From the NCBI GenBank assembly GCA_963782525.1, contig CAWAKC010000007.1, forward strand, positions 32,001 through 96,000: a stretch of DNA of 64,000 nt, in the 5' to 3' direction. Shown here one piece after another: positions 11,243 through 24,754 of the stretch. A program made the position numbers and the translations under genes. This DNA is from Candidatus Bathyarchaeota archaeon (GTDB lineage: Archaea; Thermoproteota; Bathyarchaeia; Bathyarchaeales; Bathycorpusculaceae). Every line of letters starts with the position of its first letter. The stretch's first letter is position 1. The notes below the pieces were generated by a model. The model was not told the DNA's origin and searched no databases. It saw only the letters and a list, made by a program, of their open reading frames with translations.

Positions 11243-11584
11243 ATGGTGAAGAATGTGAATGAAGAAAAGATTAAGCGCGTGCTAACAGAGCCAAAGCTAG
11301 CTGCCATAAAATCGATGCTCGAGAAAGACCATGCAATAGACTGTTTATTGCTGCTCCACGTTGGCCGCGGCAAATGGAAGGATGCTAAAGACTTCATGAA
11401 GGACAATGGCTTGACACTCAGCGATGGCACTTTTAGGGCTAGAATGATCGAGATTGAATCCTTGGGTTTAGCTAAGAGTGAACGTATTGATCCACTCAAA
11501 AAGTATTATGTTAAGACTGAACTCGGGGAAAAAGTTGCGAAACTTCTTCTCGGTTTTTTTGACACGCTTGATTCTAAGAGTTAG
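11243..11584 (+). CDS. Putative winged-helix DNA-binding protein
   Basis: LSDGTFRARMIEIESLGLAK...YYVKTELGEKV, a wHTH-like pattern. Confidence 0.6.
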   Translation: MVKNVNEEKIKRVLTEPKLAAIKSMLEKDHAIDCLLLLHVGRGKWKDAKDFMKDNGLTLSDGTFRARMIEIESLGLAKSERIDPLKKYYVKTELGEKVAKLLLGFFDTLDSKS

Positions 11585-11744: not shown

Positions 11745-12206
11745 ATGAATACATACCTAAGAAAAATCAAGAAAAACTCAAAAGCCCTCAGCCCCGTCAT
11801 CGCATCAATCATCCTCATCGCCGTCACCGTCGCAGTCAGCGTCGTCGTCGCAGCATGGATGGGTGGAATGACCATCGGATTCATGGGCAACGCAGAACAA
11901 GTATCGATCACAAACATAGCATTCGTGCCAGGGGATGGTACTACTAAAGACCAATTAGAAATAATGGTAACGAACTCAGGCAGTACACCAGCAACTATTA
12001 GCAAAGCATTCATCAATGGAGCAGCAGTTGCGGACACAGATATGACCGTGATTCCATCCGGAGCAATCGCGAAAAGCTCATCTGCTACAATAACGTTGAA
12101 TTTAGATGCTGGCACTTTAGCAGACAACGCAGGAACTGCATACCAAGTTAAGCTCATCACTCAGAAGGGCACATCAGTCGTCAACACAGCAACATACAAC
12201 CCATAA
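11745..12206 (+). CDS. Archaeal type IV pilin / archaellin-like protein (class III signal peptide)
   Basis: Basic leader KIKKNSKA followed by LSPVIASIILIAVTVAVSVVVAAW; small beta-rich C-terminal domain. Confidence 0.9.
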   Translation: MNTYLRKIKKNSKALSPVIASIILIAVTVAVSVVVAAWMGGMTIGFMGNAEQVSITNIAFVPGDGTTKDQLEIMVTNSGSTPATISKAFINGAAVADTDMTVIPSGAIAKSSSATITLNLDAGTLADNAGTAYQVKLITQKGTSVVNTATYNP

Positions 12207-12302
12207 ACACCCAACATTTAAAAATCTAAACAAGGGGCAAGGTGAAGCAAACATTCACCCAACTCTCCTCTTTCTCTTCAAAAAAATCAGGAGTAATAAA
12301 TC

Positions 12303-12728
12303 ATGGTAACACAAATCAAAGAATATACATCTGCACAGGCAATCGCCGATGCAATGGACAAGCAATTGTCCGAGACCAAAAGCGTTCTGGGCGAGTACCT
12401 GCGTAAGTTAGACGAAATCCGCACGTTAGCGGAAAAATCAAAGAAAGTCCGTGAAGTCGTTCTCAAACTCGCAGGCAAAAAAGCCCCAACCGAGAACACC
12501 AGCGAAATCACGGTCGGCACATTAAACATCGTTTTAGACGCTAACCCAACCCACGAGTTAAGTGCCATAGAATCCGTGGTCCGAAGCCACCAGGAACGTC
12601 TGCTGGTTTTGCAGAAGGTTCGGGAAGCCCTCAAATGGCTCGACCAACTTGGCGACACAGAAGGCCTCAGGTATCTAGTAGTAGAAGACGAAGGCATCCC
12701 AGAACGGATCCTATTCAAATTATCCTAA
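12303..12728 (+). CDS. Hypothetical protein with two long predicted coiled-coil helices
   Basis: Helix / beta-hairpin / helix / beta-hairpin pattern; SD AGGAG upstream. Confidence 0.7.
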   Translation: MVTQIKEYTSAQAIADAMDKQLSETKSVLGEYLRKLDEIRTLAEKSKKVREVVLKLAGKKAPTENTSEITVGTLNIVLDANPTHELSAIESVVRSHQERLLVLQKVREALKWLDQLGDTEGLRYLVVEDEGIPERILFKLS

Positions 12729-12744
12729 CCTGGGAGATTAAACG

Positions 12745-13524
12745 GTGACTGAGGCTTACAGCAACCCAATCCAAACAATCATAGATGAAATCAGAACTCT
12801 AAGCCCAGAAACCACCAATGCATTATTTTTTAGGAACACCGGACAAACAATCGCAAACACCCAAACCGGAACCGAAAAACAAATCAAAAAATTCGTCGCC
12901 AACTTCGCCAACATCTCAGTGCAGGCCCAAGCAATCGGCGGCATAGAAAGCTTTACAATCCAAACTCCGGAAAGTCAACTTAACATCGTTGCAGTGGAAG
13001 ATTACTTTTTGGCAACACTATCTTCACAGACGGCAAACCAGGAAATTCTCAAGTCGATAACTAAAGTTGTGGTCCCAACAGTAGTGAGACTTGTTAACCA
13101 GATTGACATAAAAGATAAAGAACTTGAAGAAAAACCCTACGAAGAACTAGCTGTGTCAGCATCACAAGAAGCCAAACCAACCGTTGAACCCACCCTTGAA
13201 ATACAACCGCCCTTTGAACCGTTCCTGCCCAAGACACCCACCAACCAGTTTATGGTAGAGAAAATCAGCGGGTTTATGGTTGCAGCTGACACTGTGCGAA
13301 TCGACGGCGAAATCGTGGAGCAATGGAGTAACCTCTATGAGGGCAAACAATTTAGCACAGTAATCATCGAAGCGTTAGACGGAAAGAAAACGACTTGCAA
13401 GTTTAAAGCGATTAAAGACGCAAAAAACAGTGCTAAAGGCATAATCCAGATTCCAGAAAAAATCCTGCAAACCCTGCAAACCGAAAAAGGTAAACTGGTG
13501 ATAGTTAAGCCAGTATTCGAGTAA
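12745..13524 (+). CDS. Roadblock/LC7-like N-domain fused to a CDC48-N-like double-psi beta-barrel
   Basis: N-terminal roadblock-type alpha/beta pattern; Pro/Glu-rich linker; C-terminal DTVRIDGEIVEQW...KGIIQIPEKILQTLQTEKGKLVIVKP. Confidence 0.6.
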   Translation: MTEAYSNPIQTIIDEIRTLSPETTNALFFRNTGQTIANTQTGTEKQIKKFVANFANISVQAQAIGGIESFTIQTPESQLNIVAVEDYFLATLSSQTANQEILKSITKVVVPTVVRLVNQIDIKDKELEEKPYEELAVSASQEAKPTVEPTLEIQPPFEPFLPKTPTNQFMVEKISGFMVAADTVRIDGEIVEQWSNLYEGKQFSTVIIEALDGKKTTCKFKAIKDAKNSAKGIIQIPEKILQTLQTEKGKLVIVKPVFE

Positions 13525-13530
13525 TGAGGA

Positions 13531-13935
13531 ATGATGTTGAAGCAGAAAAATAGCCAAGTCGAAACCGAATTTCCCGATGGAGCAGCAGTTATTACTGTTG
13601 GGACCGAAGATTCTGTGTTTACGGATTTGGCTGCGAGTTTGGCGGAGATACGTAAACTCGATGGTGTTAGGGGCTATATTCTTCGAAGTGATACTTCTGC
13701 GATAATAGATTTGACTGAACAAGAAAAAATAATCGAGTACGCCATCCTATCCTCGCAAATCTCTGAGTCCAGTGCTGAAATAGCCAAACAATTCAACCTA
13801 ACAGATGTAGAGAGCGTGCTGGTGGAAGGAAAAACCGTTAAAATGCTCTGCATGAACAAGTCACAAAATCGCGTAAGCGTGTTCATAGATAAGACAGCGA
13901 CTCATGATTCAATAATAAAACGAATCTTGCAATAG
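13531..13935 (+). CDS. Roadblock/LC7 (MglB/LAMTOR-like) domain protein
   Basis: LAEIRKLDGVRGYILRS...SAEIAKQFNLTDVESVLVEG...VSVFIDK. Confidence 0.75.
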   Translation: MMLKQKNSQVETEFPDGAAVITVGTEDSVFTDLAASLAEIRKLDGVRGYILRSDTSAIIDLTEQEKIIEYAILSSQISESSAEIAKQFNLTDVESVLVEGKTVKMLCMNKSQNRVSVFIDKTATHDSIIKRILQ

Positions 13936-24025: not shown

Positions 24026-24754
24026 TCACTTGCTTGAACCCAGCTCTTTGATGTAACCTTCCACTGTGTTGTCGTTTAACATTTCCATTTTCTGTGTTGC
24101 AGCTGGGATGATTGCGATTTTTATTCTCGGCGGTAGCTGGCGCGCTTCGAGGGCTTTAACTAGACATTTGACTGTTAGTTTTATGCTGCTGTCTAGGTTT
24201 AGGTCCTCTTTGTATTCTTCTTTCAGGATTCCTAGAACTGTTTCTCTTCCTGCGCCGAGTGCTGTGGCTTTGTAGCCGCGATAGGTTCCACTTGGGTGTG
24301 TGCCGAAGACGCGGGTTCCGGTTTTGTCGACTCCGCCGAAGATGATTGAGACTCCGAAGGGTCGAACACCTGCATGCTGCGTGTACATCTGCTGGATATC
24401 GCATATGCGTTTGGTTACGACTTCTACGTCGATGGGTTCGTCGTAGGTTAGTTTGTTACTTTGAGCGTAGATTCTTGCTTGGTCAATTAGGATTCTTGCG
24501 TCGGAACTTAACCCGACTATGGCTGCGCCAATATGGTCGTCTACTCGGAAGATTTTCCATGAGTAACCTGCTTCTTCGAGGACTTCTATGTTTTCTTCTG
24601 AACCTAGAACTAATCCTTCTGAACTTTGGATGCCTATAATGGTGGCTCCGCGGTTCACAAGTTCCATTGCGTATTCTACTTGGAAGAGTCGTCCATCAGG
24701 CGAGAAAACGGTAATGGCACGGTCATATGCTCCTGGTGCTGCAAATACAGACAT
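24026..24754 (-). CDS. psmA: Proteasome subunit alpha
   Basis: YDRAITVFSPDGRLFQVEYA, YTQHAGVRPFGVS. Confidence 0.97.
   Translation of the reverse strand: MSVFAAPGAYDRAITVFSPDGRLFQVEYAMELVNRGATIIGIQSSEGLVLGSEENIEVLEEAGYSWKIFRVDDHIGAAIVGLSSDARILIDQARIYAQSNKLTYDEPIDVEVVTKRICDIQQMYTQHAGVRPFGVSIIFGGVDKTGTRVFGTHPSGTYRGYKATALGAGRETVLGILKEEYKEDLNLDSSIKLTVKCLVKALEARQLPPRIKIAIIPAATQKMEMLNDNTVEGYIKELGSSK

Follow-up and report, generated by a model that had tools for sequence, protein, structure and literature searches.

Archaeal type IV pili (T4P) drive adhesion, aggregation and life on surfaces, and to our knowledge the cytoplasmic side of these machines is almost uncharted outside the archaellum, where the crenarchaeal protein FlaX/ArlX is a cytoplasmic coiled-coil accessory protein. 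Here we describe a four-gene cassette of a Candidatus Bathyarchaeota archaeon that probably combines a pilin with a cytoplasmic accessory module of a T4P system whose core machine is encoded on another contig (contig 6) of the same genome. The cassette occupies positions 11745-13935 of a stretch of 64,000 nucleotides (the window; G000:C7:32001-96000 in our numbering, where G, C, L and f denote genomes, contigs, loci and families) of a 2.87 Mb genome that is 96% complete. It encodes, all on the + strand, a type IV pilin, a coiled-coil protein of 141 amino acids (cc141), a fusion protein that joins a Roadblock domain via a linker to a double-psi beta barrel (DPBB), and a stand-alone roadblock protein of 134 amino acids (rb134).

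The closest described systems are found among archaeal T4P themselves. In the parts of the survey by Makarova, Koonin and Albers (2016; PMC4858521) that we draw on, roadblock/LC7 proteins are described as often encoded in archaeal T4P loci, e.g., in Methanoregula boonei, where roadblock genes for proteins of 115 and 245 amino acids directly precede the genes of a FlaI-like ATPase and TadC (Table S4 of that work). S-layer-like proteins, stand-alone PilA-type pilins, and a coiled-coil protein of haloarchaea are further named there as linked to T4P. Among bacteria, the roadblock protein MglB is described, in abstracts of other studies, as acting on pole identity in rod-shaped cells.

A conserved block of pilin, coiled-coil and roadblock genes

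The cassette, its parts and the gene upstream of it have the following window coordinates:

11745..12206, + strand: archaeal type IV pilin of 153 amino acids with class III signal peptide, hydrophobic helix and beta-rich C-terminal domain
12207..12302, + strand: conserved intergenic element between the pilin and cc141 genes
12303..12728, + strand: cc141, 141 amino acids, predicted cytoplasmic antiparallel helical hairpin (AlphaFold2)
12745..13524, + strand: fusion protein of 259 amino acids (Roadblock, linker and DPBB)
12745..13113, + strand: Roadblock/LC7-fold domain of the fusion, residues 1-123 (AlphaFold2, Foldseek and VIA)
13114..13236, + strand: acidic, Pro-rich linker of the fusion, residues ~124-164, predicted to be disordered (low pLDDT)
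13237..13524, + strand: DPBB domain of the fusion, residues 165-259 (Foldseek and VIA)
13531..13935, + strand: rb134, 134 amino acids, divergent stand-alone Roadblock/LC7 protein with an N-terminal extension of ~30 residues (sequence profiles)
11243..11584, + strand: probable winged-helix (HxlR-like) regulator of 113 amino acids, 5' of the pilin gene, with uncertain membership in the cassette

The intergenic gaps measure 96 nucleotides between pilin and cc141, 16 between cc141 and the fusion, and 6 between the fusion and rb134. A preliminary description of this DNA had reported four co-oriented genes, the last three 16 and 6 bp apart, and the open reading frames (ORFs) and gaps confirm this layout. 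It had also named the products a type IV pilin, a two-helix coiled-coil protein, a roadblock fusion and a stand-alone roadblock protein, and the analyses below uphold all four assignments and add the partner domain of the fusion, which that description had left unnamed, as a Cdc48-N-like DPBB.

Within the genus of the window, the order of 113-amino-acid protein, pilin, cc141, fusion and rb134 is kept on one strand in 12 of 12 loci, the window included. Across a set of 21 loci from four families of Bathyarchaeia (f1, f2, f6 and f7; including the window locus and a second copy of genome G013), all 21 have cc141 and the fusion with both its domains, 20 have rb134, and 20 have the pilin. The locus without rb134 ends inside the fusion gene, and the one without the pilin lies on a contig that starts 24 bp before cc141. 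The order of the last three genes, on which the preliminary description had staked its proposal, is therefore conserved across all four families, and the rb134 gene always lies directly 3' of the fusion gene. Sequence identities across block loci range from 67 to 100% for cc141, from 37 to 84% for the pilin, and from about 28 to 84% for the fusion. Locus L022 carries rpoN at the opposite end of the block, and we therefore conclude that the block has moved as a unit.

The proteins of the cassette

The first protein of the cassette exceeds the cut-off of 20 bits on NCBIfam TIGR02537 (archaellin/type IV pilin N-terminal domain) with a score of 31.6 bits and has an UpsA-like match at 5e-8; on Pfam Pilin_N it reaches 13.9 bits, under the cut-off of 25.2 bits. 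Its translation shows an N-terminal signal peptide and a hydrophobic helix that align with the N-terminus of a pilin from a T4P locus outside the Bathyarchaeia (L067; 31% identity over 143 amino acids), and it is 28-33% identical to pilins encoded 3' of T2SSF in three further loci (L075, L077 and L079). The class III signal peptide and N-terminal hydrophobic helix of an archaeal type IV pilin are thus both found in the protein, and a prepilin peptidase as well as an assembly ATPase and platform are all encoded in the genome.

The second protein, cc141, belongs to no family in Pfam or NCBIfam. Its AlphaFold2 model, built with 50 diverse family members, has a mean predicted local distance difference test score (pLDDT) of 89 and consists of a strand (residues 3-8), a helix (11-57), a hairpin (68-77), a second helix (82-116) and a second hairpin (122-140), and cc141 is therefore predicted to be a hairpin of two helices decorated with small beta elements. 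The protein has no transmembrane segment. Foldseek returned nothing from the Protein Data Bank (PDB) at E<=0.001, and a wide VIA search found generic two-helix hairpins at Z<=9 and no specific fold. The topology of cc141 resembles the helix-hairpin-helix of prefoldin, and 19 of the 50 family members have weak Pfam Prefoldin matches (best 2.5e-4, not checked against the cut-off); in structural comparison with prefoldin beta chains, Foldseek gave E 0.08-0.3 and VIA a Z of 7.8 with a root-mean-square deviation (rmsd) of 5.4-5.8, which ranks them among generic helical hairpins. FliJ matches occur in 11 of the 50 members (best 2.8e-6), and V-ATPase subunit D (3vr5_G) is matched at Foldseek E 0.076 and TM 0.51. 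We attribute these weak matches to Prefoldin, FliJ and V-ATPase subunit D to the helical-hairpin shape that cc141 shares with them. A link of cc141 to YlqD, named in the ESM Atlas at 0.81 beside the protein's own clusters, is a lead only.

The cc141 family comprises 3393 homologues, the best 120 of which are all at least 89% identical, and falls into 126 clusters at 50% identity. It is present in 103 of 301 sampled Thermoproteota genomes, including Desulfurococcaceae; a narrower alignment had retrieved only 10 loci, all from Desulfurococcaceae/Thermogladius. Our literature search found no discussion of this family. The host genome also encodes a cc141 paralogue of 199 amino acids (G000:C5:26530-27126, corresponding to L071:4530-5126, - strand; 1.4e-16 with the family's own profile), and other Bathyarchaeia have cc141-like proteins of 190-220 amino acids that are extended at the N-terminus by a Lys/Glu-rich stretch. 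Two distant relatives instead carry a C-terminal extension that ends in a conserved short motif.

The fusion protein of the window has no Pfam match, and its domains were assigned from an AlphaFold2 model built on a 31-sequence alignment. In this model, residues 1-123 follow the order helix-strand-strand-helix-strand-strand-strand-helix of the Roadblock/LC7 fold. With this domain, Foldseek retrieved 3kye (E 1.9e-7) and then LAMTOR2, MglB and Asgard roadblocks, and VIA gave a Z of 15.3 to MglB (6hjm_Q; 117 residues aligned, rmsd 2.3). The linker that follows has a pLDDT of 30-42 and is acidic and Pro-rich, and its length in homologues ranges from 40 to over 100 residues. Residues 165-259 were matched by Foldseek to the DPBB of VCP-like ATPases (7dg7 and 7dg9, TM 0.78-0.80) and to p97 N, and by VIA to 7dg9 (Z 13.3, 87 residues aligned, rmsd 1.8) and many p97 N-domain entries (Z 12.3-12.8). 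As modelled, the C-terminal domain is a DPBB that resembles the first subdomain of the N-domain of Cdc48/VCP/VAT. This barrel is the best conserved part of the fusion and holds many invariant residues, and one of the 31 fusion homologues has a Pfam CDC48_N match (0.0026). The barrel closes the chain at residue 259, and neither a beta-clam subdomain nor AAA+ D1/D2 domains follow: the fusion shares a domain with the Cdc48/VAT ATPases and is not one of them. Our literature searches did not find the combination of Roadblock and DPBB. Some relatives of the fusion lie in longer frames of 407-570 amino acids with two or three DPBB matches (G011:C5:171051-172622, G016:C6:431417-432589, G021:C4:14723-15958 and G020:C75:9506-10720), and the barrel can therefore be repeated.

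The last protein, rb134, scores 15.9 bits (E 0.011) on Pfam Robl_LC7 (PF03259), under the gathering threshold of 23 bits. Among its aligned homologues, 15 of 22 match Robl_LC7 at E<=0.01 (best 9.7e-7) and no other family; 2 of the 31 fusion homologues also match Robl_LC7 at this level. One source names many rb134 homologues as COG2018-type Roadblock/LC7/MglB. Searched against PDB sequences, the rb134 profile found only an Asgard roadblock (7yh1, E 0.18), and hhalign detected no relation between the profiles of rb134 and the fusion. The fusion and rb134 are hence divergent members of the Roadblock group by fold or by profile, not by curated Pfam cut-off.

Genomic context links the cassette to a type IV pilus machine

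Contigs 2, 5 and 6 of the host genome each encode a T2SSE/T2SSF pair. The contig-6 locus (G000:C6 ~113-124 kb) comprises a T2SSE of 595 amino acids and a T2SSF/TadC platform of 596 amino acids together with proteins of 287, 158, 422, 455 and 1114 amino acids, several of them with pilin-like N-termini, and is directly followed by the sole Peptidase_A24 (prepilin peptidase) match of the genome (C6:123961, 50.1 bits). It contains no small pilin of 140-160 amino acids, and the cassette's pilin is a candidate major pilin of this machine.

In the host genome itself the cassette is not adjacent to this machine, but adjacency is seen elsewhere. In G295 (L074, family f7), the block lies ~300 bp from, and divergent to, genes for T2SSE, T2SSF and two pilin-like proteins, with T2SSE 73% and T2SSF 64% identical to the contig-6 proteins. 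The arrangement in G030 (L073) is the same, with ~2.6 kb of small ORFs between block and T2SSE. From their translations, these ORFs (L073:6830-8227) look like toxin-antitoxin pairs with PIN-like/AbrB-like N-termini; G295 has none there.

The cassette and the machine are also largely present or absent together. Taking at least 57% identity to the contig-6 protein as the line for T2SSF orthologs, we found the fusion in 30, cc141 in 28, and T2SSF in 29 of 41 relatives; fusion and T2SSF are both present in 28 of these genomes and both absent from 10, with the fusion alone in 2 and T2SSF alone in 1 (concordant in 38 of 41). In a class-wide sample of 121 genomes, 13 have strong cc141 matches and 14 have T2SSF above the same line, with an overlap of 13 and neither in 107. 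Within the genus of the window, G006, G015, G017 and G018 lack fusion, cc141 and T2SSF alike, and G203 of the same genus lacks cc141 and T2SSF (the fusion was not searched in G203).

Further evidence comes from outside the Bathyarchaeia. When we inspected the flanks of cc141 in 13 other Thermoproteota families, the gene bordered a T4P locus of the contig-6 type in six of them (f30, f32, f34, f37, f50 and f51; 7 genomes), adjoining T2SSE/T2SSF in loci L067, L068, L075, L076, L077, L079 and L080. Compared to the contig-6 proteins, the machines of these loci show 45-52% identity for T2SSE and 30-34% for the ~600-amino-acid T2SSF. In five of the seven loci (not those of f37 and f51), cc141 is followed by the gene of a large secreted surface protein and then by T2SSE, T2SSF and pilins, and in three of these five the pilins include a homologue of the window pilin (28-33% identity). 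In G092, cc141, a surface protein of 978 amino acids, T2SSE, T2SSF and a pilin all lie on one strand.

The surface proteins of the five loci are 887-1242 amino acids long and have a CarboxypepD_reg domain and, at the C-terminus, a membrane anchor followed by a short acidic cytoplasmic tail. These tails look alike across families (L040, L056, L059, L060 and L064; extensions L075-L080), and a cytoplasmic partner might dock onto them. In three families, the neighbours of cc141 or T4P genes include genes for cytoplasmic proteins of 294-380 amino acids without Pfam match (L067:4119-5258, L068:4445-5578, L059:2511-3392 and L040:426-1355). BLASTP between the 294-amino-acid protein of f50 and the 380-amino-acid protein of L067 gave a marginal 7e-4 over the N-terminal ~110-150 residues, and hhalign found no relation between the latter and the fusion profile. 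Judged from their translations, the proteins of 294 and 310 amino acids seem to consist of two domains joined by a Pro-rich linker, a layout reminiscent of the fusion.

Two more T4P-type loci of the host genome (G000:C2:3000-20000, L069, and G000:C5:36001-52000, L072) each have pilin-like genes of their own. The contig-2 locus includes a KaiC-like gene (23.5% identity to the KaiC-family protein of L067), a 151-amino-acid pilin/archaellin-like gene and a split platform and may be an archaellum-like system.

The intergenic element and the surroundings of the cassette

The 96 nucleotides between pilin and cc141 contain, in this order, an A/T-rich TATA-like box (~12216-12224), a G-box (12234-12237), an inner hairpin (12241-12246 with 12254-12259), a pyrimidine tract (~12263-12279) and the Shine-Dalgarno motif GGAG (12290-12293). 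The pyrimidine-rich tract that the preliminary description had noted between the pilin and the other three genes is thus present as part of a larger conserved element. G-box, pyrimidine tract and Shine-Dalgarno motif are conserved across 30 loci, with the A/T-rich box 10-25 nucleotides 5' of the G-box. When single sequences are folded, the G-box pairs with the pyrimidine tract (mean z -1.7 versus mononucleotide shuffles), and the stem sequences of the inner hairpin vary by lineage yet stay paired. RNAalifold on a MAFFT alignment of the element gave no consensus structure, and no Rfam family matches it. The element may be the leader of the cc141 transcript or a leaky terminator 3' of the pilin gene.

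The 113-amino-acid protein encoded upstream found no match in searches of Pfam, NCBIfam and PDB sequences. The ESM Atlas labels the protein's own clusters HxlR-type helix-turn-helix (0.98), which is a lead only, with the feature PF01638 HxlR on 65% of members at 0.93 and WHD_ArnR1 on 13% at 0.92; by these Atlas features it is probably a winged-helix regulator of the HxlR/ArnR1 type. The protein is 65-98% identical across loci, and its gene lies 5' of the pilin in most loci with a long enough flank; in L074 it sits between the pilin and the divergent T2SSE. It is also kept beside the phosphoribosyltransferase gene in the cassette-less genomes G015, G017 and G006, and in G015 and G017 it is followed on its 3' side by unrelated genes.

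Further out, the 5' flank of the cassette encodes a thermosome subunit, THUMP, Cgi121, the phosphoribosyltransferase and the 113-amino-acid protein. On the 3' side, an RpoN/S9/L13/L18e/RpoD operon (read from translations) lies on the opposite strand, followed by exosome and proteasome genes, with the proteasome alpha subunit gene at 24029-24754, ~10 kb from the cassette. A PADLOC scan of the five proteins detected no defence system; its lone match, Cas6b on cc141 (17 bits, E 0.00097), was taken as noise. RNA-library contigs of relatives (85-95% identity) map to all five genes, and some extend from the pilin gene into the first part of cc141, which is a weak hint of expression given that such a library may hold DNA and that a contig is not a transcript. 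No sequencing run contained at least half of the sequence words of the stretch, and the host itself was not demonstrated in RNA runs.

Interpretation and alternative explanations

As we picture the T4P accessory module, the 153-amino-acid pilin would be cut by the Peptidase_A24 protein and polymerised by the contig-6 machine as a small, probably major, pilin. The cc141 protein would be an ancestral cytoplasmic component of this T4P type, probably located at the cytoplasmic face on the ATPase or platform, and the Roadblock domain of the fusion and rb134 would form a roadblock heterodimer. With the DPBB as a "hand" on a flexible linker, this platform would then regulate or position the assembly ATPase without a small GTPase. 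We infer that the roadblock pair acts together with cc141 on the assembly ATPase or platform; by analogy to p97 N-domain complexes, the DPBB on its flexible linker is likely a peptide-binding hand. Of the three cytoplasmic proteins, cc141 looks like an old component of T4P of the contig-6 type, and the other two, fusion and rb134, seem to have been added in one order of Bathyarchaeia. The preliminary description had considered the link to the pilin the weakest part of its proposal, yet it turns out to be the strongest, with the pilin in 20 of 21 loci and the other context all pointing to T4P.

A more far-reaching version of this mechanism appears quite unlikely as a whole. In it, the roadblocks would regulate T2SSE directly without any GTPase, cc141 would be a stalk like FliJ or V-ATPase subunit D that enters the hexameric ATPase ring and couples it to the platform, and the barrel of the fusion would tether the ATPase to a linear motif, for which the acidic tail of the surface protein is a candidate; cc141 would then be an ancestral, unnoticed core part of one T4P type across Thermoproteota.

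Several observations weigh against an accessory role in T4P. Cassette and machine lie on different contigs, and there is therefore no direct link inside the host genome; adjacency of block and machine within the Bathyarchaeia is seen in one genus only (2 genomes). The 57% line for T2SSF was chosen once the identities were seen to fall into two groups, 57-100% and <=40%. Two genomes carry the cassette without T2SSF (G031 and G036, 76% and 86% complete), and two others T2SSF without cc141 (G032 and G099). Because the genomes are related, the co-distribution counts reflect few independent events, i.e., one clade-level gain, one joint absence within a genus, and few family-level absences. In seven of the 13 families outside the Bathyarchaeia (f19, f27, f28, f35, f38, f48 and f53), no T2SSE/F was found in the flank of cc141 (1.5-6 kb; for f38 15 kb on one side), and cc141 therefore need not be pilus-specific. 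The Bathyarchaeia profiles of both roadblock proteins found no match in five cc141-bearing Thermoproteota genomes, and Pfam Robl_LC7 gave no match in the T4P loci scanned outside the Bathyarchaeia. Finally, the Roadblock fold of rb134 is assigned from sequence profiles alone.

An alternative is that the locus is a case of synteny without shared function: the three cytoplasmic proteins would make up a housekeeping or regulatory complex with no relation to pili, encoded next to a stand-alone pilin gene, with its T4P co-distribution due to common descent. The phylogenetic non-independence of that co-distribution fits this idea, as do the position of the cassette amid core informational genes (Cgi121, THUMP and the RpoN/ribosomal operon) and the TATA-like box and conserved leader before cc141, which suggest that this gene has its own promoter. 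The cc141 gene of Desulfurococcaceae moreover lies between succinyl-CoA synthetase-like and pyrophosphatase-like genes (read from translations), with no T2SSE/F within <=6 kb. However, the pairing of pilin and cc141 outlasts rearrangement of the flanks (L022 and L074), cc141 borders T4P loci in six further families and in varied orientations, which is hard to explain by inheritance alone, cassette and T2SSF are jointly missing within the window's own genus, and the covered parts of PMC4858521 describe roadblock genes independently in euryarchaeal T4P operons. We therefore consider synteny without shared function unlikely.

The preliminary description had favoured a roadblock heterodimer with a helical scaffold as a signalling, polarity or membrane-remodelling module, perhaps tied to pili, with its NTPase encoded elsewhere. 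Taken as a rival to the T4P reading, such a module would be self-standing and act on a GTPase encoded elsewhere, as in MglB-MglA, Ragulator or the conservon, with the pilin as a mere neighbour. Both roadblock assignments hold, the solved roadblock proteins among the structural matches serve small GTPases as GTPase-activating proteins (GAPs) or as platforms (MglB-MglA and Rag-Ragulator), and cc141 could be a LAMTOR1-like helical partner. As that description had stated, there is no GTPase alongside: the ORF list and a Pfam scan of the flanking genes gave none among the neighbours (THUMP, Cgi121, the phosphoribosyltransferase and the RpoN/ribosomal operon). Across the whole genome, the best Pfam Ras-family match reaches 16.8 bits in a 740-amino-acid frame, below cut-off (Arf, Roc and Gtr1/Rag models were not searched), despite 96% completeness. 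The genome does encode one GPN-loop GTPase (PF03029; C7:162514, 196 bits), which speaks for such a module, but it lies ~118 kb from the cassette and GPN-loop GTPases are widespread in archaea. Furthermore, the pilin gene is kept in the block as faithfully as the other three, the block adjoins a T4P machine in relatives and shares its distribution, and cc141 is found without these roadblock proteins in other Thermoproteota. Such a self-standing module hence seems distinctly unlikely, and like synteny without shared function it is weakened by the context evidence. Of the earlier suggestion, the tie to pili is supported and an NTPase encoded elsewhere is plausible; the NTPase itself is likelier to be a T2SSE-family ATPase than a small GTPase because no Ras-family match in the genome rises above cut-off.

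It is very improbable that the fusion is an adaptor or substrate recruiter for a Cdc48/VAT-type AAA unfoldase or the proteasome with cc141 as a prefoldin-like chaperone subunit: its C-terminal domain matches Cdc48/VCP N-domain DPBBs, cc141 has weak Prefoldin matches and a proteasome alpha gene lies ~10 kb away, but the prefoldin, FliJ and V-ATPase subunit D matches are all weak with prefoldin ranking among generic hairpins, the fusion lacks both AAA domain and beta-clam, and genomic context offers nothing in support where T4P context is abundant. A role in cell division or the cytoskeleton, prompted by the conservation of cc141, was dropped as the context gave no support.

If the cassette is indeed a T4P accessory module, cc141 represents a highly conserved coiled-coil family that travels with one type of T4P in Bathyarchaeia and other Thermoproteota, and an orphan pilin gene can be assigned to a particular machine on another contig. 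An action of the roadblock pair on the pilus ATPase would widen the range of targets known for roadblock domains. For uncultured Bathyarchaeia of sediments, our results predict piliation with this system in some lineages only.

Comparison with known systems

Literature searches on Bathyarchaeota roadblock proteins, on MglB and archaeal T4P, and on type IV pili of Bathyarchaeia returned nothing on this cassette at the level of abstracts. The actinobacterial conservon (CvnA-D) combines a roadblock protein with a sensor kinase, DUF742 and an ATP_bind_1/GPN-type GTPase in one operon, and the neighbours of the cassette include no such partners (DUF742 was not searched genome-wide). Ragulator/LAMTOR-Rag resembles the cassette in its roadblock heterodimers with a helical partner, and the structural matches include LAMTOR2 and the C-terminal domains of Rag; in contrast to cc141, LAMTOR1 is an extended wrap and not a hairpin, the Rag GTPases are essential there while no Ras-family match passes the cut-off in our genome, and the context is lysosomal signalling. 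The MglA-MglB(-MglC/RomY) system of Myxococcus and Thermus shares a roadblock fold tied to T4P, and MglB is the best structural match of the N-terminal domain of the fusion. However, MglB is a GAP for the Ras-like MglA and has no DPBB, whereas no Ras-family match passes the cut-off in our genome, which does not fit an MglB-type GAP module.

The N-terminal DPBB of Cdc48/p97/VAT has the fold of residues 165-259 of the fusion (Z 12.3-13.3, rmsd 1.8-2.2). This N-domain binds adaptors and short linear motifs, and the matched PDB entries are p97-N with UBX, VIM, VBM and SHP partners; unlike these ATPases, the fusion has neither beta-clam nor AAA domains and its barrel is fused to a Roadblock domain. 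For cc141, the haloarchaeal arCOG07564 is similar as a small intracellular coiled-coil protein of a T4P-type locus with a proposed regulatory or scaffolding role, according to the portions of PMC4858521 used here. Neither arCOG07564 nor FlaX/ArlX has a shown sequence relation to cc141, which lacks a transmembrane segment and whose family spans Bathyarchaeia, Desulfurococcaceae and other Thermoproteota families.

The closest parallel is provided by the archaeal T4P roadblocks themselves (arCOG02603, arCOG02605 and arCOG03412), and the cassette is therefore not wholly the undescribed system that the preliminary description had proposed, given that roadblock/LC7 proteins in archaeal T4P loci were noted in 2016 (PMC4858521, in the parts covered). 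As in the cassette, a short roadblock protein and one of ~245 amino acids are encoded side by side, both cytoplasmic and with no GTPase in the locus as listed there. The census of 168 genomes includes no Bathyarchaeia, and its examples are mostly euryarchaeal, lie inside the ATPase operon, and have the short gene before the long one. In the cassette, by contrast, the two roadblock genes come after those of a pilin and a coiled-coil protein and are detached from the machine, and the long roadblock protein carries a DPBB, a possible difference to arCOG02605.

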